17,060 nt of DNA from Allobaculum fili (GCF_020969955.1 NZ_JAHDSX010000048.1:1-17060), one strand, 5' to 3'. Counted from the stretch's first letter, positions 203 to 14,636 are shown. Notes: generated from the letters alone by a model not told the origin. Numbers and translations are program-made.

Positions 203-2377
203 GTGATTGATGAATCACACAATTTCAGAAACGGCATTGGAACTCATGCCAATACCCATGAGAATCGCTATCAGATGTTGATGGACAAAGTGATCAAAGC
301 CGGTGTCAGAACCAAAGTGCTGATGCTGAGCGCGACTCCTGTCAATAACAGATTTACCGATCTGAAGAACCAGCTTGCCATTGCTTATGAAGGCGAATCG
401 GAACAGCTGGATGAAAAGTTGAATACAATCAAGACAATCGACGAGATTTTTTCACAGGCACAAAAAGCGTTCAAAACCTGGAGCGAACTTTCACCTCAGT
501 CCCGAACAACCGACACGCTGCTGGGAATGCTTGATTTTGATTTCTTTGAGCTTCTGGACAGCGTGACCATTGCAAGATCCAGAAAGCATATTGAAAAGTA
601 TTACAACACAGAAGCGATTGGCAAATTCCCAACACGGTTGAAGCCAGTTTCCCTGCGGCCCAGTCTGACGAAAAAGAAGAACGCCATCAACTATTCGGAA
701 ATTTATGAAACTCTGAACCAGCTGCTTTTGACGGTCTATACTCCATCAAACTTCATTTTCCCCAGCAAGCTCCATAAGTACGCAGAGCTCTCAGGCGGCG
801 GTGGCAATAACCTGACCCAGATTGGTCGGGAGCGCGGAGTTCAGAGACTGATGAGCATTAACCTTCTGAAGCGGCTGGAAAGCTCTGTTCACTCTTTTTA
901 TCTGACTGTGAACAAGATTCTCCAAACGATCAATACCAGCATCGAGAAAGTCAACCGATTTGAGGCAGCAGGTATTGGCAGCGTAAAAGAAGCTGAAACA
1001 GGCGACACTTATGACTTTGATATCGACGATACCAATGAGGACATATTTACCATAGGCGGAAAAGTCGATATTGATCTGCGGGATATGGATTACAAATCCT
1101 GGCGCGAAGAACTGCAGCAGGATCGGGATACCCTGGAACTGCTCATTTCCATGGTTCAGGATATTACCCCTGAATATGATCTCAAGCTGCAGACACTCGA
1201 GCATCTAGTGGAAGAAAAAATCAGCCATCCAATCAATCCGGGAAACAAGAAGCTGCTCATCTTCTCGGCATTTGCAGATACTGCAGAATACCTTTACGAA
1301 CAGCTCGCCCCTGTATTGAAGAGAAAATACGGTCTGAATACAGCAATGGTCACTGGCTCTGTTGAAGGAAAGTCAACCATCAAAGGACTGAAGCCAGAAC
1401 TGAATAATATTCTGACTTGCTTCTCACCAATTTCAAAAGACAGAGATGTACTGATGCCAGGATCAACGGATGAGATTGACGTTCTGATCGCCACCGACTG
1501 TATCTCTGAAGGTCAGAATCTTCAGGACTGTGACTATCTGGTGAACTATGACATTCACTGGAATCCGGTGCGCATCGTTCAGAGATTTGGCCGTGTTGAC
1601 CGCATTGGAAGCAGGAATGAGTTTATCCAGCTTGTAAACTTCTGGCCAGATATGGAATTGGATGACTATATCAACCTGAAATCCAGAGTTGAAACGCGGA
1701 TGAAGATCTCCATCATGACATCCACAGGGGATGATGATCTGATCAACGAAGAAGAAAAAGGTGACCTGGAGTATCGGAAACAGCAGCTTAAAAAACTCCA
1801 GGAAGAAGTTGTGGACATTGAAGACATGTCCAGCGGCGTTTCGATTATGGACCTTGGGTTAAATGAGTTTCGAATGGATCTTCTCGAATATGTTAAGACT
1901 CATCCGAGTCTGGAAAACAAGCCTTACGGACTTCGCGCCGTTGTCGCAGCCAGTAAAGACAATCCAGAGGGCGTGATCTTCATCCTTCGAAACGTCAACA
2001 ACAATGTGAATATCGACAACCGCAACCGAATCCATCCCTACTACATGGTCTATATGGGTGAAGATGGAGAAGTGGTCTGTGATTATCTGAATCCTAAAAG
2101 CCTGCTGGATCGCGTGAGACTTCTTTGCAGAAACAAAAGTGAACCAATTGTATCGCTCTGTCAGAAAGTCAATAAAGAAACAGACGATGGAAAAGACATG
2201 TCGGATATCTCGATGATGCTGAATGAATCAATCTCATCCATAATTGACCTGAAAGAAGAAAGCGACCTGGACAGCCTTTTCTCTGCAGGAGGCACTTCCG
2301 CCCTTCTTTCAGATGTAAGCGGTCTCGATGATTTTGAACTGGTCTGCTTTCTGGTTGTGAAAAAGGAGGATGACTAA
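203..2377 (+). CDS. SNF2-family (DEAD/DEAH-like) helicase, 5'-truncated fragment lacking motif I
   Basis: Motif II VVIDESHNFRN lies at the very start of the ORF. Further motifs: III LMLSATPVNN, IV KLLIFSAF, V VLIATDCISEGQNLQDC, VI WNPVRIVQRFGRVDRIGS. The frame is open back only to a TGA at 119..121, and helicase-like sequence (LSNGLDLGRLNWGNYDLVVIDESH) begins at the repeat boundary (129). No Walker A/motif I is present. GTG 203 is only the first possible start in the track. Confidence 0.85.
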   Translation: MIDESHNFRNGIGTHANTHENRYQMLMDKVIKAGVRTKVLMLSATPVNNRFTDLKNQLAIAYEGESEQLDEKLNTIKTIDEIFSQAQKAFKTWSELSPQSRTTDTLLGMLDFDFFELLDSVTIARSRKHIEKYYNTEAIGKFPTRLKPVSLRPSLTKKKNAINYSEIYETLNQLLLTVYTPSNFIFPSKLHKYAELSGGGGNNLTQIGRERGVQRLMSINLLKRLESSVHSFYLTVNKILQTINTSIEKVNRFEAAGIGSVKEAETGDTYDFDIDDTNEDIFTIGGKVDIDLRDMDYKSWREELQQDRDTLELLISMVQDITPEYDLKLQTLEHLVEEKISHPINPGNKKLLIFSAFADTAEYLYEQLAPVLKRKYGLNTAMVTGSVEGKSTIKGLKPELNNILTCFSPISKDRDVLMPGSTDEIDVLIATDCISEGQNLQDCDYLVNYDIHWNPVRIVQRFGRVDRIGSRNEFIQLVNFWPDMELDDYINLKSRVETRMKISIMTSTGDDDLINEEEKGDLEYRKQQLKKLQEEVVDIEDMSSGVSIMDLGLNEFRMDLLEYVKTHPSLENKPYGLRAVVAASKDNPEGVIFILRNVNNNVNIDNRNRIHPYYMVYMGEDGEVVCDYLNPKSLLDRVRLLCRNKSEPIVSLCQKVNKETDDGKDMSDISMMLNESISSIIDLKEESDLDSLFSAGGTSALLSDVSGLDDFELVCFLVVKKEDD

Positions 2378-3066
2378 TGCTCGGCCTGCCAAAAACAACA
2401 GAATTCAATAAACGAATTCCAAAGAAGAAATTCTACGAGCAGCTTGAGGTTACTCCTGAGACTAAGCGGGTCTTTGTCGACCAGATCAAAAACATTATCT
2501 GGAGAAATAAGATCGCTCCATCCACTGCCAATATTGCTGCTGGCGAGAAAGTGAATGAAATCGAAGTTTTTGAGGTTCAGTTAGCCTCTAAGGATCTCGA
2601 TGAAAAAGTCCTGAAACTGATCGACCAGGGAATTCCCTATCACATTGTTTTTGTTCTCCATCATGAAAAGCAGATCCAAATCTGGACAGCATTCAAGGAA
2701 GCAAAAAACAAAGAAGAGACGGCCTACAAGGTAGCTGCCTACTACCATACGGATTGGATGCCTGAAGACTCTTTCAGCGTTGAACTCAAAGGCATAAATA
2801 TGAACCAGATTTATGAAAGTCTGGTAAGGGAGATTGCTGGCGATTCACTGTTAGGCAATGAAGAAGAAAGCCTAGAAGAATCTGTCGATCGGACAAATGA
2901 AATAAAATACCTGGAGAAAAAGATCGAGAAACTGCAGGCAAAGATGAGAAAGGAAAAGCAGTTCAATAAAAAGGTGAAACTCAATGATGAGTTGAAGCAT
3001 CTGAAATCAGAATTGCGTAAATTTGAATATGGAAAAGATGAAAATGGAGACTGCCGATTTATTTGA
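2377..3066 (+). CDS. DUF4391-like protein with a C-terminal coiled coil
   Basis: 229-aa ORF. Its ATG overlaps the helicase stop (TAATG) and is preceded by AAGGAGG. The N-terminal pattern LPKTTEFNKRIPKKKFYE...IEVFEVQL...LIDQGIPYHIVFVL matches my recollection of DUF4391 proteins found next to SNF2 helicases and Mod/Res genes. The family call is from memory, not from a search. Confidence 0.7.
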   Translation: MLGLPKTTEFNKRIPKKKFYEQLEVTPETKRVFVDQIKNIIWRNKIAPSTANIAAGEKVNEIEVFEVQLASKDLDEKVLKLIDQGIPYHIVFVLHHEKQIQIWTAFKEAKNKEETAYKVAAYYHTDWMPEDSFSVELKGINMNQIYESLVREIAGDSLLGNEEESLEESVDRTNEIKYLEKKIEKLQAKMRKEKQFNKKVKLNDELKHLKSELRKFEYGKDENGDCRFI

Positions 3067-4897
3067 ATCAAATGTTAAAAAGATTGGCGATCTTTTTCCA
3101 GAAGCCATAACTGAATCCTTTGATAACGAAGGAAAAACCCGAAAATCTATAGATTTTGAAATACTGAAAGAATTGCTCTCAGGAAGTATTGCTGAAGGAA
3201 ACGAGACATATACTTTTACCTGGCCAGGAAAGAAGAAAGCATTAGCGCAGGCTCATTCCCCGATTCGAAAAACGTTGCGACCTCTACCTGAAGAAGGAGT
3301 GGATTGGGAACATGCTAAAAACCTATACATTGAAGGGGACAATCTGGATGTTCTCAAACTTCTCCAGGAAAGTTACTTAAATCGAATCAAGATGATCTAT
3401 ATTGATCCTCCCTATAATACGGGACACGATTTTCTCTACAGAGATACATTTGAATCTTCAAAAATACAGTTTGAGGAAAAGATAGAAGCTGTCTCAGAGG
3501 ATAGAGACCGACTGATCCGAAATTTGGAGACCAACGGTCGGTTTCATTCAGACTGGTGTTCAATGATATACCCGAGACTGATCTTGTCTAGAAATCTTCT
3601 GACTGAAGATGGTGTGATTTTTATCAGCATTGACGATAATGAGCAGGAAAATTTAAGGAAGATTTGTGATGAAGTTTTCGGTGAACAGAATTTTGTCGCT
3701 CAGCTTATCTGGGAAAGAGCTTATGCTCCGAAAAATGATGCAAAGTACATTTCGAATAGTCATGACTACATTCTTATGTACTCAAAAAATCTGGATAATT
3801 TTAAAATAGGACGTCTTCCGCGAACGGAAGAAGCCAATGCACGTTATGCGAATCCAGATAACGACCCTAGAGGACCGTGGAAACCAAGTGATCTGTCGGT
3901 AAAAACCTATAATGCTGAATCTGACTATCCAATCACCCTGCCTTCCGGCAGGGTGGTAGAGCCTCCAGCAGGACGCTGCTGGAGTCTCTCCAAAAATAAA
4001 TTTTTGGAGAGACTCCAGGATAACCGCATCTGGTTTGGAGCCAAAGGAGATTCCGTTCCCAGTATGAAACGATTTCTTTCTGAGTTGAAATTTGATGGAA
4101 TGGCTCCCACTTCAATTATGTTTTACAAAGATGTCGGTCACAGTCAGGAAGGTGCGAAAGAAACATCTGCATTATTGGGTGGTGGATACTTCGATGGCCC
4201 AAAACCAGTCAGACTCTTGAAACGGTTGATGACGCTTGCAAACCTGAAAGAAGATTCGATTGTATTAGATTTCTTTTCTGGTTCAGCCTCTCTTGCTCAG
4301 GCAGTGATGGAAATAAATCGTGAAAGTGGCAAGACAATCCAGTATATCTTGGTTCAGATACCAGAAACAGTAGATTCCAAAAGCAAAGCCTATGAGGCGG
4401 GTTATCGAACGATTTGCGATATAGGAATCGATCGAATCAAGAAGGCCACAGGTAAGATTTATAAAGATAATACTCTACTTGGCGAAATTGTTCCTGGTTT
4501 TCGTGTCTTTGAGCTGGCTAGTTCGAACATGAAAGATATTTACTACTCTCCAAACGACTACCAGCAATACTTTCTCTCAATGACTGAATCCAATATAAAG
4601 GAGGATCGTACGGACCTGGATCTTCTTTTTGGTTGTCTTCTTGATTGGGGTCTGGAGTTATCAAAGCCCTACAAATCAGAAGAGATCACTGGTGTCTCTG
4701 TTCACACCTATGATGAAAATGCTTTGGTGGCCTGCTTTGCAGAAAACGTTCCTGAAGAAGTGGTTCGAGAGATCGCTAAACGTCAGCCGCTTCGCGCTGT
4801 TTTCCGGGACAGCAGCTTTGGAGACGATGCCGCTAGAGTAAATGTTGGAGAAATCTTCAAACTTCTCTCACCGGATACAGAAGTCAAAGTGCTGTAG
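3029..4897 (+). CDS. mod: Type III-like N6-adenine DNA methyltransferase (Mod, beta-class)
   Basis: Motif IV IYIDPPYNTG (DPPY at 3404..3415) comes before the AdoMet motif I-like LDFFSGSASLAQAV (about 4268..4303), which is the beta-class order typical of Type III Mod. A long variable region between them is a candidate target-recognition domain. The start is ambiguous (TTG 3023; ATG 3029, 3038, 3044), and the gene overlaps the end of the DUF4391-like gene. Confidence 0.88.
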   Translation: MEKMKMETADLFESNVKKIGDLFPEAITESFDNEGKTRKSIDFEILKELLSGSIAEGNETYTFTWPGKKKALAQAHSPIRKTLRPLPEEGVDWEHAKNLYIEGDNLDVLKLLQESYLNRIKMIYIDPPYNTGHDFLYRDTFESSKIQFEEKIEAVSEDRDRLIRNLETNGRFHSDWCSMIYPRLILSRNLLTEDGVIFISIDDNEQENLRKICDEVFGEQNFVAQLIWERAYAPKNDAKYISNSHDYILMYSKNLDNFKIGRLPRTEEANARYANPDNDPRGPWKPSDLSVKTYNAESDYPITLPSGRVVEPPAGRCWSLSKNKFLERLQDNRIWFGAKGDSVPSMKRFLSELKFDGMAPTSIMFYKDVGHSQEGAKETSALLGGGYFDGPKPVRLLKRLMTLANLKEDSIVLDFFSGSASLAQAVMEINRESGKTIQYILVQIPETVDSKSKAYEAGYRTICDIGIDRIKKATGKIYKDNTLLGEIVPGFRVFELASSNMKDIYYSPNDYQQYFLSMTESNIKEDRTDLDLLFGCLLDWGLELSKPYKSEEITGVSVHTYDENALVACFAENVPEEVVREIAKRQPLRAVFRDSSFGDDAARVNVGEIFKLLSPDTEVKVL

Positions 4898-4906
4898 GTG
4901 ACTTTT

Positions 4907-7900
4907 ATGAAGATCAAATATAAGCACCAAAAATTTCAGGCAGATGCTGCTAAGGCAGTCGTTGATGTTTTCAAAGATCAGCCATATTCAACCCCCTCCT
5001 ATATGATCGACCAGGGTAAAAGAGACCTTACTCTGTTCGAGAATTTAGAGGGGTACGATGATTCGATGGGATGGAATAACGCTAAAATCATCCCAGCTCT
5101 TTCCGATAAGATCATCCTGGATAGAATCAACAAAATCCAGAGAAATGGGCAGATAAAGCCTTCAGATAAACTAGTCGATCGCTCTAACGGCTATAACCTG
5201 TCAATCGAAATGGAAACAGGTGTCGGTAAAACATACACCTACATTAAAACAATGTATGAACTAAACAAGGCCTATGGCTGGAGCAAGTTCATTGTTGTGG
5301 TTCCAAGCATCGCAATTCGTGAAGGTGTCTACAAAAGCTTCCAGACAACTCAGGACCATTTCGCTGAAGAATATGGCAAGAAGATCCGCTTCTTCGTCTA
5401 TAACTCTTCACAGCTTTCTGAGATTGATCATTTTGCTTCTGACAGCTCGATCAACGTCATGATCATCAATGCCCAAGCATTCAACGCTACAGGCAAAGAT
5501 GCCAGACGCATTTATATGGAATTGGATGAATTTCGTTCACGCCGCCCCATTGATGTGATCGCAAAGACGAATCCAATTCTGATTATTGATGAGCCGCAGT
5601 CGGTTGAGGGGAAGAAAACGAAAGAGAAGCTTAAAGAATTCAATCCTTTGATGACTCTTCGTTATTCTGCTACTCACAAGGATCCTTACAACATGATTTA
5701 TCGGCTGGATGCGATTGAAGCTTATAATCAGCGTCTGGTAAAGAAAATTGCTGTAAAAGGAATCTCTGAAACAGGAACAACAGCAACAAACAGTTTTGTT
5801 TACCTGGAAGGCGTGAATGTCTCCAAGAAAAACCCAACCGCGACCATTCAATTCGATGTAAAGATGAAGAATGGAACAAAACCCAAAAGCCGAATCGTTA
5901 ATGAAGGAGATAATCTCTTTGAATATTCTGGCGGGCTGGAAGAATACCGGGATGGTTTTGTCGTAAAGAGAATTGATGGCCGGGATAACCACATTGAGTT
6001 TCTCAATGGCCTGACCCTATATGCGGGAGATGTTGTTGGGAAGATTGATGAAGATCAGCTGCGCAGGATCCAGATTCGCGAAACCATTCTGACTCATCTC
6101 GAAAGAGAGCAAGAACTTTTCTACAAAGGAATCAAGGTTCTGAGTCTTTTCTTCATCGATGAGGTGGACCATTACCGAATCTACAACAAAGTTGGTGAAG
6201 CGGAGAATGGCAAGTTTGCCGATATGTTTGAAGAGGAATATGACATTGCTGTCAGTGCTCTTCGGGAGCAGCTTGATGATCAGGATGAATATGCCAAATA
6301 TCTTGATGCCATTACCGCTTCCCAGACTCACTCCGGTTACTTTTCCATCGATAAAAAAGGTCACCTCTCAAATGGAAAGATCAACAAACGTGAAGGGGTG
6401 TCAGAAGATACATCAGCCTATGATCTGATCATGAAGAATAAAGAGCTTCTGCTGGATCGTGATCCAAAGAAATCACCTGTTCGTTTTATTTTTTCCCATT
6501 CCGCGCTGCGTGAAGGATGGGACAACCCGAATGTTTTTCAGATCTGTACGTTGAAACAAAGCAGCAGCGAGATCCGAAAGCGTCAGGAAGTCGGACGTGG
6601 TCTTCGTCTTTGCGTTAATGATAATGGAGAACGAATGGACGCGAACGTTCTGGGAGATGATGTTCAGAATGTGAATCTGCTGACTGTAATTGCTTCTGAA
6701 AGTTATGACTCTTTTGCCAAAGGACTTCAGTCAGAAATGGCAGAAGATGTTTCCGACCGTCCACGCAAAGTTACCACAGATCTCTTTGCCAATAAAATCA
6801 TTCGCGATGTGAATGGCGATGAACAGGTTGTTACGCCCGACCTGGCGCGAATCATTTACAACAACATGATTCGCAATGATTACATCGATGATGAAGGTGT
6901 TCTTACAGACAAATACTATTCAGACAAGAAAAATGGAACAGTCCAGGTTCCGGAGAAGCTGAAGGACAGTCAGGACTCTATCGTTAAGATTCTCGATTCC
7001 ATTTATGATCCGCGTGTAACGACTCCAGAAAATGGACGATCGAATAATGTGACTTTGAAGGTTGATAAGAGAAAACTGGCGTCTACAGAGTTTAAGAATC
7101 TGTGGAAACAGATTAATCAGAAAACGATTTATACAGTGAACTTTGACTCGGATGAACTTGTCGAAAAATCAATCGCTTCCCTGGATGAACACCTGCAGGT
7201 AGCAAAGGTATTCTTTCGAATTGAAACAGGAAGGATGGACCACATTGAGGATCGTGAACAGCTTGCAACGGGTCAAGCATTTGCTAAGGATCAAACCAGA
7301 AATATCAAAATTTCAGCTTCATCTTCCCAGAACGTGAAATATGATCTGGTTGGTAAAATCGTAGAAGACACCGGATTGACTCGAAAAACGATTATTCGAA
7401 TCCTTCAGGGAATTAAGCCTGAAACGTTCAATCAGTTCAAAGAGAATCCGGAAGATTTCGTCATTAAGGCATCGTCTTTGATCAATGATCAAAAAGCCAC
7501 AGCAATCATCCAGCACATTACCTACGATCTGCTCGATGAAGCTTACGATACAGATATCTTCACGGATGCGACAATCAAGGGTCAGCTTGGCAAGAATGCC
7601 ATGAAAACTCAGAAACATCTTTTTGATCATCTGGTTTTCGATTCGGATAATGAGAAGAAGTTTGCGTCTGACCTGGACACCAGTGATGAAGTGGCTGTTT
7701 ATGTTAAACTGCCGAATTCATTCTTTATCTCCACACCAGTTGGAAAATACAATCCAGACTGGGCGATTGCTTTCTATGAAGGAAACGTCAAACACATTTA
7801 TTTCGTCGCGGAAACAAAGGGGTCCATGAATTCTTTGCAGCTGCGAGAAGTTGAGAAATCAAAAATTGAATGTGCCAGAGAGCATTTCAAAGCAATTTCT

Positions 7901-7966
7901 GGAAAGAATGTCGTTTACGATGTAGTTGACAGCTACCAGTCACTGATGGATAAAGTGATGAAATAA
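4907..7966 (+). CDS. res: Type III restriction enzyme Res subunit (SF2 helicase plus C-terminal PD-(D/E)XK nuclease)
   Basis: Walker A METGVGKTYT, motif II ILIIDEPQS (5588..5599), motif III LRYSATH. The C-terminal nuclease signature is YNPDWAIAF...IYFVAETKG (ETK at 7811..7819). ATG 4907 is preferred over GTG 4898 because AGGTGA lies 5 nt upstream. The gene starts 10 nt after the mod stop. Confidence 0.9.
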   Translation: MKIKYKHQKFQADAAKAVVDVFKDQPYSTPSYMIDQGKRDLTLFENLEGYDDSMGWNNAKIIPALSDKIILDRINKIQRNGQIKPSDKLVDRSNGYNLSIEMETGVGKTYTYIKTMYELNKAYGWSKFIVVVPSIAIREGVYKSFQTTQDHFAEEYGKKIRFFVYNSSQLSEIDHFASDSSINVMIINAQAFNATGKDARRIYMELDEFRSRRPIDVIAKTNPILIIDEPQSVEGKKTKEKLKEFNPLMTLRYSATHKDPYNMIYRLDAIEAYNQRLVKKIAVKGISETGTTATNSFVYLEGVNVSKKNPTATIQFDVKMKNGTKPKSRIVNEGDNLFEYSGGLEEYRDGFVVKRIDGRDNHIEFLNGLTLYAGDVVGKIDEDQLRRIQIRETILTHLEREQELFYKGIKVLSLFFIDEVDHYRIYNKVGEAENGKFADMFEEEYDIAVSALREQLDDQDEYAKYLDAITASQTHSGYFSIDKKGHLSNGKINKREGVSEDTSAYDLIMKNKELLLDRDPKKSPVRFIFSHSALREGWDNPNVFQICTLKQSSSEIRKRQEVGRGLRLCVNDNGERMDANVLGDDVQNVNLLTVIASESYDSFAKGLQSEMAEDVSDRPRKVTTDLFANKIIRDVNGDEQVVTPDLARIIYNNMIRNDYIDDEGVLTDKYYSDKKNGTVQVPEKLKDSQDSIVKILDSIYDPRVTTPENGRSNNVTLKVDKRKLASTEFKNLWKQINQKTIYTVNFDSDELVEKSIASLDEHLQVAKVFFRIETGRMDHIEDREQLATGQAFAKDQTRNIKISASSSQNVKYDLVGKIVEDTGLTRKTIIRILQGIKPETFNQFKENPEDFVIKASSLINDQKATAIIQHITYDLLDEAYDTDIFTDATIKGQLGKNAMKTQKHLFDHLVFDSDNEKKFASDLDTSDEVAVYVKLPNSFFISTPVGKYNPDWAIAFYEGNVKHIYFVAETKGSMNSLQLREVEKSKIECAREHFKAISGKNVVYDVVDSYQSLMDKVMK

Positions 7967-8020: not shown

Positions 8021-9595
8021 TCACTTCTGCTCCGGTTTTCGGTTGATCCGTCGCTTGCCGACAAAGTAGAACTCAAGGCTTCGGTTCTTGTAGACCATCA
8101 CCTTGTCGACCATGGCTCTGACCAGATCGCCATCAAAGTCATCCACGTGTTCGAGCTTCTGTAGGAGATCCAGATAGTTCCTCATCCGGTCACCTTCGTA
8201 TTCCATATCTCGGATCTTTGCTGCCAGTTTTGCGTGGTCTTTTTCCAGCTTCTCATATTCTTCCAGAAGCTCTGTATAGGCTTCATTGAAGTTGCTCGGG
8301 TTCGCTTCAATCAGCTTCTCAGCTTTCTCTGCGATTTTCTCCATCCGCTCCTGAATGCGGTCGGCTTTGGCTTGAAGCTTTTCAGTGTTGTACGTCTCGT
8401 GGAACTTATCAGTCCATTCATCAAGAATGCTCTGTTTGTCTTCAAGCAGTTCATTGAGCGCGTTCACAAATTCCTGTTCCAGTACAGCTTCTGGAACTCG
8501 GTGGGAAGGACAGCGTTGATCGCTGTCGTATTTGTTCTTCCAGCAGATCCATCCAGGCACCTTCTTCTTCGTGTATCGGGTCGCGACGCTTCGGGTGTAC
8601 CAGGACTTACAAGTCGCGCACTGAACTCGGTGGCTGAAGGGAAATGGAGTGTGGCAGCCTAACCGTTCTTTGCCATATCTGTATTTGCGGTCGGCGATCA
8701 TTTTCTGAACCCTGTCGAAGTCTTCCGCGCTGATGATTCCCTGATGGGAGTTGGTTACGTAGTAGGAAGGGATGGCGCCCTTATTTTTGACCTGTTTCTT
8801 GGTGATGAAGTCTGGTGTGTAGACTTTCTGGAGAACCAGATCGCCTTTGTATTTTTCGTTCATCAGCATCTGTTTAATGACGTTGCGGTCCCATTTATCC
8901 CTGCCAAACTTGGTCTTGATCCCGTGGCTTTCCAGATGGTTCTTGATGTCTGTGTAGGTACTTCCGTTCAGAAACATTCGGAAGATCAGCCGGACAATCT
9001 CCGCTTCTTCTTCAACGATCTTAACGCCACCATCCTCGGCTCGGGTATAACCCATCAGATTGCCGTAAGGGATCTTGTAGGTCCCTTCTTCATATTTCTT
9101 CCGGACACCCCATTTCACGTTTTCAGAAATGCTGCGGCTTTCTTCTTGAGCAAGGGAGGACATGATGGTCAGAAGTAGCTCGCCTTTTCCATCAAAGGTC
9201 CAGATGTTCTCTTTTTCGAAATAGACCTCCACGTTATGCTCTTTGAGTTCACGAATGGTCGTCAAGGAGTCAACCGTGTTTCTGGCAAACCGACTGACTG
9301 ACTTGGTGATAATCAAGTCAATCTTGTGGTCGAGCGCATCCTGGATCATTTGCTTGAATCCTTCACGGTGGGCGGTACTGGTTCCGCTGATGCCTTCATC
9401 GGTATAGACGTTTACAAAGTTCCAATCCGCTCGTTCACGGATCATGTTCTCGTAATAGGAAACCTGGGTTTCGTAGCTGCTCTGCTGTTCATCACGATCG
9501 GTTGATACCCTGGCATAGGCAGCAACGTTTTTTCTGGCGATGATTGGCTGAACTCTAGCCATTGTTCTGGTTACTGGGATTTTTCGTACTTGCAT
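8021..9595 (-). CDS. Large serine recombinase (resolvase domain, recombinase domain, zinc ribbon, coiled coil)
   Basis: N-terminal VAAYARVSTDRDEQQSSYETQ (catalytic Ser codon 9505..9503), then DEGISGTS, SVSRFARN and QEESRSISENVK. A Cys-rich zinc ribbon (CATCKS...WICW...CPSH) is followed by a long coiled coil. AAGGAG lies 6 nt upstream of ATG 9595. The gene overlaps the upstream recombinase gene by 25 nt. Confidence 0.9.
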   Translation of the reverse strand: MQVRKIPVTRTMARVQPIIARKNVAAYARVSTDRDEQQSSYETQVSYYENMIRERADWNFVNVYTDEGISGTSTAHREGFKQMIQDALDHKIDLIITKSVSRFARNTVDSLTTIRELKEHNVEVYFEKENIWTFDGKGELLLTIMSSLAQEESRSISENVKWGVRKKYEEGTYKIPYGNLMGYTRAEDGGVKIVEEEAEIVRLIFRMFLNGSTYTDIKNHLESHGIKTKFGRDKWDRNVIKQMLMNEKYKGDLVLQKVYTPDFITKKQVKNKGAIPSYYVTNSHQGIISAEDFDRVQKMIADRKYRYGKERLGCHTPFPFSHRVQCATCKSWYTRSVATRYTKKKVPGWICWKNKYDSDQRCPSHRVPEAVLEQEFVNALNELLEDKQSILDEWTDKFHETYNTEKLQAKADRIQERMEKIAEKAEKLIEANPSNFNEAYTELLEEYEKLEKDHAKLAAKIRDMEYEGDRMRNYLDLLQKLEHVDDFDGDLVRAMVDKVMVYKNRSLEFYFVGKRRINRKPEQK

Positions 9596-10767
9596 GTCTT
9601 TCTCCTTCCATCTATAAAGTGGAACTCCATGGTTCCGTCTGGTTCGACTTCGATCACTTCGACCTGCTCTCGGAAGAAGTCTGTATCGAATTTCTTGATT
9701 CCAAGTGTTCTTGCAGCGATTTTTTCGAGGATAAATTCATCGAGATTGATTGAATGGCACTCTACCAGGTGGTTTCTTCTGGAGTAGCATTGCCAATAAA
9801 TGGTGATCTGATCTTTATATCTTTGAGTGATGCGCTGGAAATTTCGTCCACAGTCTTTGCATTTGAGCTTGCCTGTAAAGGCATTGACTTTCTTACGATT
9901 TCTTCCTGGCTGTCGGTTTTGTTCTGTTCGCTGCTGGGCTTTCTGCCAGGTTTCTTCGTCCACCAGCGGTTCGTGATGGTCTTCGACCAGGTACTGCGGC
10001 AGCTCTCCCTGGTTCTTATGCCGATCATGAAGAATCGGGTCACCTACGTATTCTTTGCAAAGCAGCAGTACTCCAATATAGGTTGGGTTAGCAAGCATGG
10101 CTTTGATCATTGCAGCCTGGAATTTATTGCCTTTCCGAGTCTTCACTCCGGTCCGATTCATCCATTCAAGAATGTCTCGAACTCGCATGCCGTTGGCATA
10201 GTCCTGAAACATCTTTGTGACGATCCAGCCTTCGGTCTCATTCACGATCAGATCATCACCTTTCCAGTCGTAACCAAAGACTGGATTTCGTCCGTTTGGA
10301 ATGCCTTGTTCAAAGCGCTTCTTGATTGCCCAGCGGATGTTATCGGAGATGTTGCGGCTTTCCTCCTGGGCAAAAGAAGCCATGATGGATAGCATGAGTT
10401 CTCCATCATGGCTGAATGTGGAGAGATTCTCTTTCTCAAAGAACACCTCCACGTTATGTTCTTTAAGCTGACGGACAGTTGCTAGAAGGTCGACGGTATT
10501 TCTGGCGAATCGCTGGATGGATTTGGCCAGAATCAGGTCAATCTTTCCCTGCAGAGCCAAAGCAATCATCCGGTTAAACTGAGGTCGCTTCTTGGTGGTG
10601 GTACCGCTGATGCCGTAATCGGCAAACACACCTGCGTTCTGCCAGAGCGGATTGTTATTAATTTTGTTGGTGAAGTGGACGATCTGGTTTGTGATGGAGG
10701 ACTCCATCAACTCGGACTCTACAGAAACTCGGCAATAGGCTGCGACCCGTTTCAGTTTTTTGATCAT
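9571..10767 (-). CDS. Serine recombinase, shorter paralog (398 aa) lacking the long coiled coil
   Basis: VAAYCRVSVES (Ser codon 10725..10723), ADYGISGTT, SIQRFARN, QEESRNISDNIR and a zinc ribbon CKDCG...CYSRRNHLVECH. AAAGGAG lies 6 nt upstream of ATG 10767. Confidence 0.88.
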   Translation of the reverse strand: MIKKLKRVAAYCRVSVESELMESSITNQIVHFTNKINNNPLWQNAGVFADYGISGTTTKKRPQFNRMIALALQGKIDLILAKSIQRFARNTVDLLATVRQLKEHNVEVFFEKENLSTFSHDGELMLSIMASFAQEESRNISDNIRWAIKKRFEQGIPNGRNPVFGYDWKGDDLIVNETEGWIVTKMFQDYANGMRVRDILEWMNRTGVKTRKGNKFQAAMIKAMLANPTYIGVLLLCKEYVGDPILHDRHKNQGELPQYLVEDHHEPLVDEETWQKAQQRTEQNRQPGRNRKKVNAFTGKLKCKDCGRNFQRITQRYKDQITIYWQCYSRRNHLVECHSINLDEFILEKIAARTLGIKKFDTDFFREQVEVIEVEPDGTMEFHFIDGRRKTCKYEKSQ

Positions 10768-10837: not shown

Positions 10838-11245
10838 TTACTTCAAATTTACGGCTTTGTCGCGACCGAATTTGCCCATATGGAAGCAATGAGAATTGCA
10901 ATACTGCTTCTGATAGCTCTTGTAATTCTCGATCGGGCTGCCGCAGGTCTTGCAATAAGTGATAACCGGGTTTCGTTTATGGACGAGATGCTGGTGCTTG
11001 TTCCACCAGTCTTCCCGACATTTCTGGCAACAGAAGATCTTTCTTTTCGGAGCTTCCTCGGGAAGAAGGGCTCCACAGTGTTTGCAGCGTTTCCGCTGCT
11101 TGGCTTTCTTTCCGGCAAGACCTGCCTGTCTGCACACGTTTTGAACGGCAGATTTTGTCAGACCAAGCTGGCTGGCGATGAAGTCGTAGCTCTTGTTTGC
11201 TTTGCGCATTTCGATGATGGTTTTCTTGTTTTCCTTGCTGACCAT
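10838..11245 (-). CDS. Small DNA-binding protein: sigma-70 region-4-like HTH plus a double zinc ribbon
   Basis: N-terminal IIEMRKANKSYDFIASQLGLTKSAVQNVCRQAG resembles an HTH. The C-terminus has CKHCG..CCQKC and CKTCG..CNSHC pairs. AGGAGA lies 5 nt upstream of ATG 11245. It sits directly upstream of the recombinase pair. Its role (regulator or recombination directionality factor) is not known. Confidence 0.7.
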   Translation of the reverse strand: MVSKENKKTIIEMRKANKSYDFIASQLGLTKSAVQNVCRQAGLAGKKAKQRKRCKHCGALLPEEAPKRKIFCCQKCREDWWNKHQHLVHKRNPVITYCKTCGSPIENYKSYQKQYCNSHCFHMGKFGRDKAVNLK

Positions 11246-11254
11246 GTTGTTCTC

Positions 11255-14110
11255 CTAATCTTTGCAATAGAAGGGAGTTCTGTACCCTTCGGCATTGAGT
11301 ACCAGACCGTTATCCCATGGCGGAAGCTCACACATCTTCTGGCAGATCGTTTCAACCGATATGCTGGGATCAGCTTCTACGATGATTTCATCGTGGACAT
11401 GGGCGACGATTTTGTATTTCTGGCAATTGCTCATGGCGTTCATGAGAAGATCTCGTGAGATCGCCTGCGTGATGTTTTCGACAAATTTCGGACCGTAGCT
11501 TTCCAGCCGTTCCCATTTCTTGTTCAAACCCAAGCCCATGTAGGTCACCGATTCAGTTCCATATTTATTGGTCTCGATTCTTGGCTTGGGGTAAGCCAAA
11601 GATCTTCCTGACGGAAGCTGGATGAAGAGAATGCCTGATGTGTATGAGAAAACCAGGTTCTTGAGAAAGACCGGCTGCTTCGTTCTGAGTGCTTTCTTGA
11701 TGGCTGCATCAACTGCCCACCAGTACTTGACGATTTTCGGATTAGCTTGACGCCAGGAATCAACCAGTGGCTTAAGTTCTTCTTCCTTCATTCCAAAGTC
11801 CAAAGCGCCCATGGCTTTCATCGCTCCTACTGAGCCACCGTATCCACAGTTGTGAACGAGTTTGTTCGATACGGTAAAACGGTGATGTGGTCCGGCATTT
11901 CGTATGTCATAAAGTCGAGTCTTGCTGAGATCAGTTTCCATCCCTTGCATTTTCGTTTTACAGAGTCCTCGGCTTGTTTGATGATTTGTTCTCGGGTATA
12001 TCCTTGGCCGAGTCTTCTGACTACCACATTTCGGGAATAAGGCCAGTACTCTTGCTTGAACTCGCTTAAGACGGTGTTGCGCTTGTTTGCTTGATTTTGC
12101 TCGTGAGAAGCAAATCGAATGTTTCCCGGCTCGTAATTTCCATTTGTATCGATTCGATCTATTTCCAGATGTCGTGAAAGCTGCGGATATAAAGACATGA
12201 GATACTGTCCGGCTTCGATCACAGATGCAAAACGAAATTTGATCCCTCGAGCACCATAATTTCTGTATTCTGGGTCTCTTTCGTTCTCGCATCGGCTTTT
12301 GGCTGCGGTTAATCGCTTTTCTAGCCAAATTGGGATCTTCCGTTTTTGCGAACAAGCCTGGCATCCTTTTGACTTTCCTCTTTGTAATTGATTGAGATCT
12401 TGCCATTGGATACTTTCGCATCCGTTGCACTTTGTTAGGACATAACAGTGATTCCACTTCTGGCTCCAGCGCTTTTGTGGAGAGATGATTGTCACCCAAC
12501 CTAATCGGGTGCCTACCATTTCCGGTTTGTATGAGATGTGTGCCGCTGGAGGCAGCTTTTCCAAATTGTATTGGCTTCTGCGACCCCTTGATCCAGACGA
12601 CATGATCTTTTGTTGCTCGTAGTCCTTCATATTTGATCACCTCACCGATACCTTTCTCAATCACGCCTTCATGCGTGACCCAGTTTTCTCCGTCCCACAG
12701 ACGATGGTCTAAACGGACGTCTTCAATCGGGACCAGTCCTTTATCTGTCAAGACAAGCTCACCTTTGGCAATACACGCCAATTCCGCTTGCTTGCCCTTC
12801 TGTCTCAAGTCTCCGTTCACACCGTGTTTGACCACGGGAACCTTGAACATTCGGCTAGCCGTTTCGCAATAGATATCGCCGTTTTCTTTGAAGACCGTCT
12901 GTCGCCATTCTTCTTCCGCCAACCATGAGAGAACTCGTGCTTCGATCGCAGAGAAGTCTGCGACGATGAAGTCTTTTCCATCCGGAGCGATGAGTGCGGT
13001 TCTGATGAGCTGAGAAAGCGTGTCGGGAATATCGTCATAAAGCATTTCCAAGGCTTGTATATTCATATTGGCAACAAGACTTCTTGCTTCTTTCAGATCT
13101 GGCATTTTGTTCCTGGGGAGATTCTGGAGCTGAACGATACGGCCAGAATAGCGGCCAGTGCGAATCGCTCCATAGAATTGGAACATTCCGCGAATTCTTC
13201 CGTCAGAACAGGCAGAATTGAGCATGGCTTCATACTTCTTGACCGAGGCCATGGCCAGCTGGTTTCGCAGTTCGAGAACGGTTCGTACTTTATCCGAGGC
13301 TTTCTCCATCAAAGCCTTCATGCCTTTCTGGTTGAGGGTATCTGTTGGCAGATTCTGCTGCAAAAGCCACTCCTTCATCTGCGATGGTGAGTTTGGGTTT
13401 TCCAATCCGGTCATCTTTTGAAGACGTTTGAGCAGCGATTCTTTGGCAGATTCGCTGATTTCCAGAGCATGGGTAGCCAGGTTGATGTCGACCAGAACAC
13501 CACAATCGTTAATCCGCTGGTCTAACTGGTACTCCGTCCATATAGACGCTCTGACCGGAAACTTTATCAACCGCTGTTCGATCTCGATTTCCGCTTCTAC
13601 ATCCCGCTTGTTGTACTCCTTGAAAAGCTGCCATTTCTCTGGATCTTCCTGCTCGATGGGACCGCTGCAGAACATCTTGATGAGCGCTCTGCCTTCCTTG
13701 AGCTTTGGCCGTTCAAGGTTCAGCACCTGTGAAAGCTGGTCCAACGATAGCGGAAGCCCAAGCGTGGCTGCATGGACCATGGAGCATTGCCAGTCTTCCG
13801 GATCAAGAAACTCGTAATCATCGAGCATTCCAAGATTTCGGAAATACCTGGACAGACAGATTCTTTCGAAGGCAGCGTTATGTGCCACTTTGATCACGTC
13901 CGGATCGAGAATGGCTTCGATTAGAAAATCAGGCAGTGCTTCAAAGTGCTTCATGTCGATCACATCCACAGGATCGCCATCAAAGGAAAAGGCAAAGAGG
14001 AGGATTTGGAAATCCTCGCTCTCTGCATAGCGGTAAACACCAGCTTTAGAAAGATCAGTAGATGAAGACGTCTCAAGATCGATGAAAAGCCTACGAGAGG
14101 AAGTCATCAT
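11255..14110 (-). CDS. Phage-type family-A DNA polymerase with 3'-5' exonuclease domain, interrupted by an intein
   Basis: Exo I LFIDLETSS and Exo II VAHNAAFE. Pol motif A is FIVADFSAIEARVLSWLA, motif B is split as RQKGKQAELA / CGYGGSVGA, and motif C is IVAHVHDEIIVE. ATG 14110 (GAGGA 5 nt upstream, overlapping the end of the upstream gene) is preferred over the track start at 14221. The exteins are 445 + 197 codons. Confidence 0.9.
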   Translation of the reverse strand: MMTSSRRLFIDLETSSSTDLSKAGVYRYAESEDFQILLFAFSFDGDPVDVIDMKHFEALPDFLIEAILDPDVIKVAHNAAFERICLSRYFRNLGMLDDYEFLDPEDWQCSMVHAATLGLPLSLDQLSQVLNLERPKLKEGRALIKMFCSGPIEQEDPEKWQLFKEYNKRDVEAEIEIEQRLIKFPVRASIWTEYQLDQRINDCGVLVDINLATHALEISESAKESLLKRLQKMTGLENPNSPSQMKEWLLQQNLPTDTLNQKGMKALMEKASDKVRTVLELRNQLAMASVKKYEAMLNSACSDGRIRGMFQFYGAIRTGRYSGRIVQLQNLPRNKMPDLKEARSLVANMNIQALEMLYDDIPDTLSQLIRTALIAPDGKDFIVADFSAIEARVLSWLAEEEWRQTVFKENGDIYCETASRMFKVPVVKHGVNGDLRQKGKQAELACIAKGELVLTDKGLVPIEDVRLDHRLWDGENWVTHEGVIEKGIGEVIKYEGLRATKDHVVWIKGSQKPIQFGKAASSGTHLIQTGNGRHPIRLGDNHLSTKALEPEVESLLCPNKVQRMRKYPMARSQSITKRKVKRMPGLFAKTEDPNLARKAINRSQKPMRERKRPRIQKLWCSRDQISFCICDRSRTVSHVFISAAFTTSGNRSNRYKWKLRAGKHSICFSRAKSSKQAQHRLKRVQARVLALFPKCGSQKTRPRIYPRTNHQTSRGLCKTKMQGMETDLSKTRLYDIRNAGPHHRFTVSNKLVHNCGYGGSVGAMKAMGALDFGMKEEELKPLVDSWRQANPKIVKYWWAVDAAIKKALRTKQPVFLKNLVFSYTSGILFIQLPSGRSLAYPKPRIETNKYGTESVTYMGLGLNKKWERLESYGPKFVENITQAISRDLLMNAMSNCQKYKIVAHVHDEIIVEADPSISVETICQKMCELPPWDNGLVLNAEGYRTPFYCKD
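11827..12630 (-). CDS. HNH/His-Me-finger-like homing endonuclease ORF, +1 frame inside the intein
   Basis: 267-aa ORF in a different frame from the polymerase. Motifs GTRLGWVTII, CNGC...CQAC, EYRNYGARGIKF and IDRIDTNGNYEPGNIRFASHEQNQANKR resemble free-standing phage HNH-type endonucleases. ATG 12630 has a strong SD. The homologous part starts near the alternative ATG at 12519. Confidence 0.65.
   Translation of the reverse strand: MKDYEQQKIMSSGSRGRRSQYNLEKLPPAAHISYKPEMVGTRLGWVTIISPQKRWSQKWNHCYVLTKCNGCESIQWQDLNQLQRGKSKGCQACSQKRKIPIWLEKRLTAAKSRCENERDPEYRNYGARGIKFRFASVIEAGQYLMSLYPQLSRHLEIDRIDTNGNYEPGNIRFASHEQNQANKRNTVLSEFKQEYWPYSRNVVVRRLGQGYTREQIIKQAEDSVKRKCKGWKLISARLDFMTYEMPDHITVLPYRTNSFTTVDTVAQ
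11849..12775 (-). mobile_element. Intein (309 codons) inserted in polymerase motif B
   Basis: The Cys1 codon is at 12775..12773 (CIAKGELVLTDKGLVPIEDV, block A). Block B is LRATKDHVVW. Blocks F/G are LYDIRNAGPHHRFTVSNKLVHN, with terminal His-Asn at 11854..11849 and the +1 Cys at 11848..11846. Confidence 0.8.
12635..12643 (-). promoter_or_regulatory. Shine-Dalgarno site for the internal endonuclease ORF
   Basis: GAGGTGATC on the minus strand is a 9-nt match to the consensus SD (AGGAGGTGATC). Its GAGG core ends 9 nt before ATG 12630. It lies inside intein coding sequence (polymerase frame IGEVIKYEG). Confidence 0.6.
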
Positions 14111-14636
14111 CAGTATCCTCACTGACAAAGTCATCGTTTGCGGTTGTTCTACCTCCCAGACGCGGACCGTCCTTGATCTTCTGAATGTTGCCAAGACCAC
14201 AGGCAACACCTTTATTGCCATTGGAGCTGAACGCGTAGAAGTTCAGAGAAACACGGGCATAGCATCCGGAGTAGACTTCGCTCTGGTCGAGGATTGGCTG
14301 TACGCGACGATCTACGATCTGCGGTGCTTCCTTACTGGACGCGTTCAGGAAGTAGTGGCCTTTATAGACCTCGTCATCTCGTTCGATATCACCATCACGC
14401 AGCGGGAGTTTGATGGCCTGCTTGTTGGGTTTCTTACCGCCGAATTTGGCCAGACCGTTATCGATAGCGGCATCGACTGCTTTCTCGATGGCGGACAGGG
14501 TTTCCAGATCATTTTTAGGAATCAGAATCTGAGTGGAGTACTTTTCTTCTCCACCATTGATAGACACAGGCTTCCATCCGTTGAAGTAGGACAGGCGGGT
14601 TTCTTTTCCCGTTACGACTTTGGTATTTGCTTTCAT
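14091..14636 (-). CDS. DUF2815-type phage SSB-like protein
   Basis: MKANTKVVTGKETRLSYFN... with an acidic C-terminal tail DDFVSEDTDDDFLS reminiscent of SSB tails. ATG 14636 has AAAGGAGAAATAGC upstream and lies 2 nt after the upstream stop. It is preferred over the track start at 14729, which has no SD. The family call is from memory. Confidence 0.75.
   Translation of the reverse strand: MKANTKVVTGKETRLSYFNGWKPVSINGGEEKYSTQILIPKNDLETLSAIEKAVDAAIDNGLAKFGGKKPNKQAIKLPLRDGDIERDDEVYKGHYFLNASSKEAPQIVDRRVQPILDQSEVYSGCYARVSLNFYAFSSNGNKGVACGLGNIQKIKDGPRLGGRTTANDDFVSEDTDDDFLS

Follow-up and report, generated by a model that had tools for sequence, protein, structure and literature searches.

A predicted motif-B intein of a prophage-like family-A DNA polymerase carries an HNH-family gene in its +1 frame

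Can a single stretch of DNA encode both an intein within a DNA polymerase and, in another frame of the same strand, a separately translated protein of the HNH endonuclease family? This question is raised by a locus of Allobaculum fili (GCF_020969955.1, NZ_JAHDSX010000048.1:1-17060), a stretch of 17,060 nucleotides (nt) which was analysed as a whole and which we refer to as the window. It contains an open reading frame (ORF) for a family-A DNA polymerase, interrupted inside motif B by a 309-codon insert with the junctions ..RQKGKQAELA / CIAKGELVLT.. and ..KLVHN / CGYGGSVGA.., and a second ORF which is nested in the insert in the +1 frame (Table 1). An earlier reading of this DNA, made from the sequence alone (hereafter the sequence-only reading), had described the polymerase as split in this way, and we found both junctions and their coordinates as it gave them. 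We think it likely that the insert is a class-1-type intein at motif B which hosts a same-strand, +1-frame HNH/AP2 gene, with two proteins being made from one DNA.

We gathered 168 related loci from metagenomes, IMG/VR and GTDB genomes, which contained 135 distinct intein regions. In the window the two ORFs overlap by 804 nt, of which 782 nt lie in the intein and 22 nt in the C-extein. The polymerase frame, noted in the sequence-only reading to be without a stop here, was open across the intein in 132 of the 135 distinct relatives; broken frames were seen in the loci labelled L035, L064 and L095, and also in L001, which carries a 64-nt deletion. The third frame was open for only 6–125 codons in the relatives. 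For a stop to appear in the polymerase frame, a T-ending HNH codon must be followed by one that begins with AA, AG or GA. Among 64 distinct full-length copies, T-ending HNH codons made up 1/4649 before AA, AG or GA codons versus 25.5% before others. When synonymous codons were permuted within each sequence, a mean of ~12 polymerase-frame stops was expected and 0 were observed, the mean fraction of permutations with zero such stops being 5e-5, and third-frame stops occurred as expected (15 observed vs 14.8 by permutation). These results show strong selection against polymerase-frame stops across the whole nested region, and the check in relatives which had been proposed, that the segment should stay free of stops, came out decisively.

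We also aligned 125 distinct sequences (MAFFT, fast settings) and compared the entropy of the three codon positions, a measure of constraint which involves no tree-based ratio of non-synonymous to synonymous substitution (dN/dS). In the N-extein and the first ~150 nt of the intein it was polymerase position 3 that varied (~1.5 bits), and at intein nt 195–285 variability was low at all codon positions. Between nt 285 and 825 polymerase position 1, corresponding to HNH position 3, had an entropy of 1.2–1.7 bits versus 0.4–0.8 bits at polymerase position 3; from nt 870 onward variability was back at polymerase position 3, in damped form, so that the frame switches fall at intein nt ~195–285 and ~825–870. 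Purifying selection is thereby shown for the HNH frame in the middle and for the polymerase frame towards either end. Over the 540 nt at the centre, the HNH frame alone is constrained and the polymerase frame is just kept open. Both frames are constrained at the amino-acid level over ~140 nt at the 5' end, where blocks B and N4 lie over the HNH N-terminus, and over ~100 nt at the 3' end, where blocks F and G lie over the HNH tail. The earlier estimate of about 0.6 kb of apparent dual coding was right in that the overlap is real; its extent was not, since the ORF overlap is the larger one given above and double constraint on amino acids is found only in these two end segments. The idea that selection holds the overlapping frame open was borne out both by stop avoidance and by the switch of codon-position variability to the HNH frame.

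The nested protein has a zinc-ribbon (CxxC..CxxC), the motif RCxNPxxxxYxNYGxRGI and an HNH-like beta-beta-alpha unit (EIDRID..PGN..RF..N..N). It matched the PHROG HNH-endonuclease families phrog_374 (4.5e-20) and phrog_3377 (9.5e-20), and its AlphaFold2 (AF2) model had a mean pLDDT (predicted local distance difference test) score of 80.8, being ordered at residues ~20–250 and disordered at 1–16 and 255–267 (pLDDT < 50 at 255–267), with strands at 156–159 and 171–174 and then a helix at 176–181 over the HNH motif. These family matches at ~1e-20 and the confident model uphold the sequence-only reading's view of the +1 ORF as an HNH-family protein. In BFVD the model matched free-standing phage HNH/AP2 endonucleases (1e-10 to 1e-8), and Pfam HNH_3 gave sub-threshold matches in 17/117 members (best 0.0038). 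We found 573 homologues, nearly all of 257–284 amino acids (aa; range 233–321) and with 49–86% identity, all of which were stand-alone calls.

The AF2 model of the polymerase-frame intein had pLDDT values of 50–77 with predicted beta strands at residues 6–81, ~30–35 at residues 82–289 and ~50 at the C-terminus, and was built on a shallow alignment of only 15 sequences, because the search for in-frame intein proteins yielded only 30 proteins, gene callers seldom reading through the intein. The low values at residues 82–289, and the lack of any family match in Pfam, PHROG or NCBIfam there, agree with the earlier description of a featureless middle segment. The splicing blocks lie where the HNH model is disordered, at its ends, and the folded HNH core lies where the polymerase frame has its disordered linker; the models suggest that one frame encodes a folded protein and the other two splicing-domain halves joined by an unstructured linker.

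The best surviving alternative, which we nevertheless judge improbable, is that the +1 ORF is a decaying and unexpressed endonuclease relic and that the polymerase/intein frame alone matters. Under this alternative it would be hard to see why at least 250 uninterrupted HNH codons are kept in 111 of the 135 distinct copies, why variability is concentrated at HNH position 3 over 540 nt, or why 35 columns are invariant across 117 nested proteins at ~60% identity and the start codon and the ribosome-binding sequence in front of it are conserved. In its favour, the HNH frame is stopped or truncated while the polymerase frame is intact in L076, L108, L122, L128 and L085–L088, mini-inteins without the HNH core exist, and the canonical catalytic His appears to be absent.

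How would the nested gene be translated? The sequence-only reading had given it an ATG and a Shine–Dalgarno (SD) sequence of its own at proper spacing, and both are present, GAGGTGATC at 12643..12635 being followed by the ATG at 12630, and both lie on polymerase-frame sites with biased synonymous choice. The ATG is made from intein Tyr-Glu/Asp codons (TAT GAx) and was found in 113/125 copies, and an SD-like motif was found in 114/125 distinct relatives. TAT was used at the start-codon Tyr site in 114/125 (91%) versus 56% in the exteins of the same loci, and Glu-Val codons supply the SD core GAGGT, G being present at the synonymous site of Glu in 104/118 (88%) versus 44% GAG in the exteins; since the sequences are phylogenetically related, nominal binomial P values for these biases are overstated, while their direction is clear. 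Where the canonical ATG is missing, another ATG lies a few codons upstream in the same frame, or the copy is one of a truncated, decaying group.

The HNH domain could in principle be made instead by a programmed +1 frameshift, as a fusion of N-extein, N-terminal intein part and HNH domain which would terminate shortly beyond the splice junction. In its favour, the two ORFs share one mRNA with an overlap of 804 nt, and internal initiation is a predicted mechanism. However, an HNH-frame stop usually lies 1–3 codons upstream of the conserved ATG (open stretches of 259–272 codons for ORFs of 257–270 codons), and this argues against read-in by frameshifting; the ATG and SD are kept on synonymous polymerase sites, upstream ATGs compensate for loss of the canonical one, and no slippery motif was noticed at the junction on reading the sequence. 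Frameshifting is therefore highly improbable, and independent initiation at the internal SD/ATG, to which this conservation points, is the best-supported mechanism. The earlier proposal that the endonuclease appears to be translated independently from within the intein is thus strongly supported by the comparative data.

The Hint blocks A, B, F and G which had been reported for the insert recur in relatives. In 24 diverse members the nucleophiles and the block B and G residues are invariant; among these are Cys1, His58 of the TxxH in block B and, at the end, His-Asn (H137-N138 in the spliced mini-intein alignment), and T55 of block B is kept in at least 90%. The C-terminal splicing region has the invariant residues R116, Y118, D119, N122, G124, R128, T130–S132 and L135–N138, and Cys+1 of the C-extein is present in every delimited intein copy. 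The intein is 309 aa long in 106/114 delimited relatives. When a profile of the two splicing halves was compared to PDB sequences, the weak top matches were inteins and an intein-like domain, namely Neq Pol (0.009) and Npu DnaE (0.08), both covering block B, and a BIL domain (0.28), and hhalign against the Npu DnaE intein gave 88.7% probability (E 2.5e-6) over 112 columns. PHROG gave one short N-terminal match only to the polymerase-frame intein. On these sequence features we accept the insert as a class-1-type intein, with splicing predicted.

The O-helix and motif B are essential in family-A polymerases. It is very unlikely that the insert, which lies in this region between ELA and CGYGG, is a tolerated, non-splicing insertion which is kept in the mature polymerase and hosts a free-standing HNH gene: all splicing nucleophiles and the residues of blocks B and G are invariant, the profiles appear to resemble the Npu DnaE and Neq Pol inteins, and the mini-intein derivatives keep exactly the splicing blocks. 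This has to be set against the missing Pfam call for a Hint domain and the description of such a host for an out-of-frame HNH (PMC11855218). We rejected two further candidates. A group I or group II intron carrying an endonuclease ORF is not supported by an Rfam scan of the window, which matched no intron and no other RNA family, and the host frame is held open by selection; a split intein or fractured gene does not fit the continuous polymerase ORF of 950–1000 codons in nearly all complete loci, the apparent splits being gene-caller artefacts. Finally, a pair of compensating sequencing or assembly indels which put an in-frame HNH domain out of frame, named as an alternative in the sequence-only reading, has practically no chance of being the explanation and is refuted by the recurrence of the arrangement in more than 100 independent assemblies including complete genomes: single loci are faulty (L001 with its deletion; L008, GCA_029782595.1 JARCCX010099761.1, a close relative of the window, excluded for tandem duplications inside the intein/HNH region which we took as an assembly artefact), yet the +1 relation was seen in 135 distinct sequences from complete genomes, isolates, metagenome-assembled genomes (MAGs) and phage records, and no in-frame version was seen among the 573 protein homologues.

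Several observations weigh against an intein with a nested HNH-family gene, in addition to the relatedness of the sequences behind the start-signal biases and the shallow alignment behind the polymerase-frame model. Pfam found no Hint domain at threshold in the intein (Hint_2 at 0.15 in 2/24 members), and Pfam and NCBIfam scans of the polymerase-frame intein translation found no family. Neither Pfam nor NCBIfam recognised the HNH domain of the nested ORF at threshold, and Foldseek of the nested-protein model against the PDB gave no significant match. A search of PDB sequences with the nested-protein profile also found nothing. In HNH enzymes the first strand ends with the catalytic His, to which the first letter of HNH refers. 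When the nested proteins are aligned by motif to the HNH_3 consensus, the corresponding position (D158-R159, window 12157..12152) holds an invariant Arg in 117/117 proteins, and the Asn residues of the HNH-like motif are kept (N170, N179 and N182). Nuclease activity of the nested protein is uncertain because of this Arg, and the label "endonuclease" comes from family annotation and evolutionary behaviour and not from a complete active site.

If the intein and its nested gene work as proposed, the polymerase would be made as a precursor in which reading across the nested gene yields an unstructured linker of ~180 residues that connects the splicing-domain halves. The conserved splicing residues suggest that the intein would then excise, joining ..AELA to CGYGG.., and the conserved start signals suggest that the ~30-kDa HNH-family protein would be started separately at the internal SD/ATG. 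This protein would presumably cut or mark intein-free polymerase alleles, into which the whole unit would be copied. The most likely origin is that a free-standing endonuclease gene invaded a mini-intein, and the surviving insertions would be those which left the essential polymerase frame open. It is plausible that the arrangement is an intermediate towards split inteins.

A further and rather doubtful suggestion goes beyond this. The nested protein may be something other than a conventional HNH nuclease, as part of a large "DRID" branch with an invariant Arg for the catalytic His, which may have colonised motif-B inteins out of frame at least twice, as a specific and recurrent habit. For Bacillota prophages the frame in which a homologue is nested in the polymerase motif-B intein is +1, and for Salmonella Jerseyviruses it is +2. 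If the two associations are independent, this would be an endonuclease family with a specific, recurrent out-of-frame route into intein-coding DNA. The overlap, in which the start signals and both termini fall within splicing blocks, might then bind splicing domain and mobility gene together inseparably, which would bear directly on how inteins gain endonucleases.

The Jerseyvirus case was seen in Salmonella phage vB_SalS-S10 (L169, OL770276.1), where an "intein-containing DNA polymerase precursor" at 1008-4106 has a different motif-B intein (CLHRHTQVL...LVAHN / CELGLGY), sitting four codons upstream of the insertion site in the window. Its nested ORF at 2441-3184 encodes a 247-aa HNH-family homologue in the +2 frame (32% identity, E 9e-18). 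There were tblastn matches of this kind in 149 Salmonella phage records, and in BFVD this ORF is listed from phage LPSE1 under the name "uncharacterized protein".

We compared the locus to systems already described. The sequence-only reading knew of no earlier account of a contiguous intein whose endonuclease is out of frame, and its suggestion of novelty does not hold, as such inteins have been reported by Gosselin et al. 2025 (10.1101/2025.01.02.630785) and Phillips et al. 2026 (10.64898/2026.09.14.751524). Both works cite Gorbalenya 1998, which Gosselin et al. credit with the first such proposal, and both discuss the idea of an intermediate on the way to split inteins. Gosselin, Arsenault & Gogarten described non-canonical actinobacteriophage inteins with an antisense LAGLIDADG, an antisense VSR-like or a same-strand, frame-3 endonuclease VII-like gene, and proposed that they originated when inteins were invaded by free-standing genes. 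Their inteins are like ours in having a contiguous Hint domain in the host frame, an endonuclease ORF between the splicing blocks in another frame, a structureless host-frame middle and a proposed invasion by a free-standing endonuclease; they are unlike ours in that theirs are from actinobacteriophages and have their HNH examples in frame, whereas our gene is of the HNH/AP2 type and is read from the host strand in its +1 frame, within the family-A polymerase of Bacillota prophages. Phillips, DeSimone & Gogarten described frame-dependent selection in a cyanobacterial dnaX intein with an out-of-frame LAGLIDADG. The likeness extends to the form of this selection (in theirs, low dN/dS in the endonuclease frame and loss of host-frame synonymous change), to the sporadic full, mini and empty alleles and to a proposed secondary invasion of a mini-intein; theirs differs in being a LAGLIDADG endonuclease in dnaX of cyanobacterial chromosomes.

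In ShiLan, an out-of-frame HNH lies in a non-splicing insertion of a phage DNA methylase (Arsenault et al. 2025, PMC11855218). There too an insertion without host-frame stops carries an HNH gene in another of its frames, and the same question of translation arises, but ShiLan has no detectable splicing domain whereas our locus has Hint blocks A, B, F and G and all nucleophiles. Fractured genes, in which the two halves of a split intein flank a free-standing endonuclease gene (Dassa et al. 2009, PMC2677866), likewise tie a free-standing-type endonuclease gene to an intein in an essential replication gene and are a possible evolutionary neighbour; they differ in consisting of two genes with trans splicing, where our host frame is continuous. 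Free-standing phage HNH/AP2 genes, such as those of Staphylococcus phage SEP9 and Bacillus phage Izhevsk, gave the best BFVD structure matches, and the SEP9 gene had 28.6% identity by tblastn; these genes stand alone in intergenic positions and ours is nested in coding sequence. The present locus shows the features of inteins with an alternative-frame endonuclease, the gene being +1 on the same strand, the host frame being open in the relatives (132 of 135) and the HNH frame being constrained as judged from entropy. What it presents is a combination, a same-strand +1 HNH-family gene in a contiguous family-A polymerase intein, and the kind is already known; in the literature we found no description of this family of polymerase inteins with a nested HNH gene.

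We also compared polymerases with and without the insert, as the sequence-only reading had proposed. Intein-free alleles are common and read RQKGKxAELACGYGG without interruption, in agreement with phage records; on viral contigs 80/80 best spliced-junction relatives were contiguous and 76/78 matched RQKGKxxELA[C/L]G[Y/F]GG. The empty alleles have 60–69% extein identity. Mini-inteins of ~120–150 residues occupy the same site in P0126, P0127, P0128, P0129 and P0138, having lost the HNH core and kept its first overlapped codons. Because the polymerase-frame reading of these first HNH codons is retained, the mini-inteins appear to be deletion derivatives and not ancestors. Full, empty, mini and broken-HNH states, together with the few broken polymerase frames, would make up the range that one would expect from a homing element lodged in an essential gene.

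The architecture spans isolates, MAGs, phages and complete genomes, with hundreds of copies in Bacillota and some in Actinomycetota, and named phage carriers include Streptococcus and Gardnerella phages. The +1 ORF of the window (267 residues) is 100% identical to that of Allobaculum mucilyticum strain 128 (L089, NZ_CP078089.1 near 2.97 Mb). Metagenome gene callers (L001–L007) split the locus into an N-terminal polymerase piece, a 270-aa ORF and a C-extein "gene" of 185–187 aa, while GenBank copies from Streptococcus Javan phages (e.g. L170, Javan113) and Gardnerella phages are annotated as "DNA polymerase I" or "DNA polymerase" with the nested ORF omitted. Gene callers therefore systematically misannotate such loci, with one product lost in either annotation style.

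The family is a clean and very large natural case of overprinting, with a two-protein constraint at the ends and a constraint of "one protein plus no stops" in the middle. It supports a splicing-first view in which inteins gain mobility genes through invading free-standing endonuclease genes. It is also a tractable system for studying how translation may start within a gene that is itself translated, how splicing may proceed across a disordered linker of 180 residues and how a protein separate from the intein polypeptide may bring about homing.

Table 1 Coordinates of the features at and around the polymerase locus of the window
Feature	Coordinates	Strand	Details	Basis
Family-A DNA polymerase ORF	14221..11255	minus	988 codons	ORF list
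N-extein	12776..14221	minus	3'-5' exonuclease region and polymerase motifs to motif B Lys (..RQKGKQAELA)	ORF list, Pfam, PHROG
Intein (predicted)	11849..12775	minus	In frame with polymerase; 309 codons; Cys1 ... His-Asn, then Cys+1	Junctions, relatives
N-terminal splicing region	12476..12775	minus	Blocks A, N2, B and N4	Variability, AF2, weak PDB profile matches
SD-like sequence	12635..12646	minus	GGTGAGGTGATC, within intein codons Gly-Glu-Val-Ile; core GAGGTG ends 7 nt before ATG	
Nested ORF	11827..12630	minus	+1 relative to polymerase; 267 codons and stop; ends 22 nt into C-extein	ORF list
Central overprinted zone	11950..12490	minus	~540 nt; HNH frame under amino-acid selection	Entropy, pLDDT, stop contexts
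C-terminal splicing region	11849..11962	minus	Blocks F and G (..RLYDIRNAGPHHRFTVSNKLVHN), under disordered tail of HNH ORF	Invariant residues
C-extein	11255..11848	minus	CGYGG.. of motif B, motif C, C-terminus	PHROG
Intein-free site at junction			..GCGGAATTGGCG / TGTGGATACGG..	
Intein-free target, synthetic-site form			..AAGGGCAAGCAAGCGGAATTGGCG / TGTGGATACGGTGGCTCA..	
Two large serine recombinase genes and 135-aa ORF	8021..10767 and 10838..11245	minus	Directly downstream of polymerase	Domain matches
Helicase_C-domain protein, N6/N4 DNA methylase, ResIII/DEAD helicase with C-terminal endonuclease domain	203..7966	plus	Beyond the recombinases	

The host polymerase matched Pfam DNA_pol_A at residues 261–481 (2.6e-21), phrog_17 over the N-extein from residue 36 onward (2.4e-133) and phrog_10285 over residues 792–988, the C-extein (6e-107). 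The true start is probably Met38/39, near 14110. The spliced polymerase would have 679 aa from the first ATG and 642 aa if Met38 is the start, so that the 642 aa given in the sequence-only reading are right for a Met38 start and not for the first ATG.

Upstream of the polymerase there are genes for DUF2800/PD-(D/E)XK and Enc34-type ssDNA-binding proteins, and downstream the serine recombinase pair has Resolvase, Recombinase and Zn ribbon domains, with the two genes overlapping by 25 nt, next to the 135-aa ORF with its weak helix-turn-helix (HTH) match. These upstream genes and downstream recombinases identify the neighbourhood as a replication module at the edge of a prophage-like element, and the junction between the recombinases and the plus-strand block is probably the element boundary. 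A megablast of the polymerase gene against phage records gave short matches only, and protein-level searches were informative. Relatives carry DUF932, VapE or SNF2 genes in place of the recombinase genes of the window.

Some single contigs are also worthy of note. L001 (2780-2800 compared to L002) has lost its 64 nt from the N-terminal splicing region, so that the intein meets a stop after 24 residues and the N-extein comes to be in frame with HNH; four further contigs similar to L001 were reported by look-up. L001 is probably a dead polymerase, which superficially resembles an atypically split intein. It also has, at 1434-2351, a second upstream intein of 306 residues (..RTGRF / CLTGDHEV...VWVTGN / SGRHIQ..), which is found in some related polymerases; P0126 appears to begin with the end of an upstream intein of this second type, and the site is uninterrupted in the window (RTGRYSGR). 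Two contigs, IMGVR_UViG_3300029439_000006 (L055/L232) and IMGVR_UViG_3300029380_000015 (L052/L235), each have an occupied and an intein-free polymerase copy ~20 kb apart, and may represent tandem elements or chimeric assemblies.

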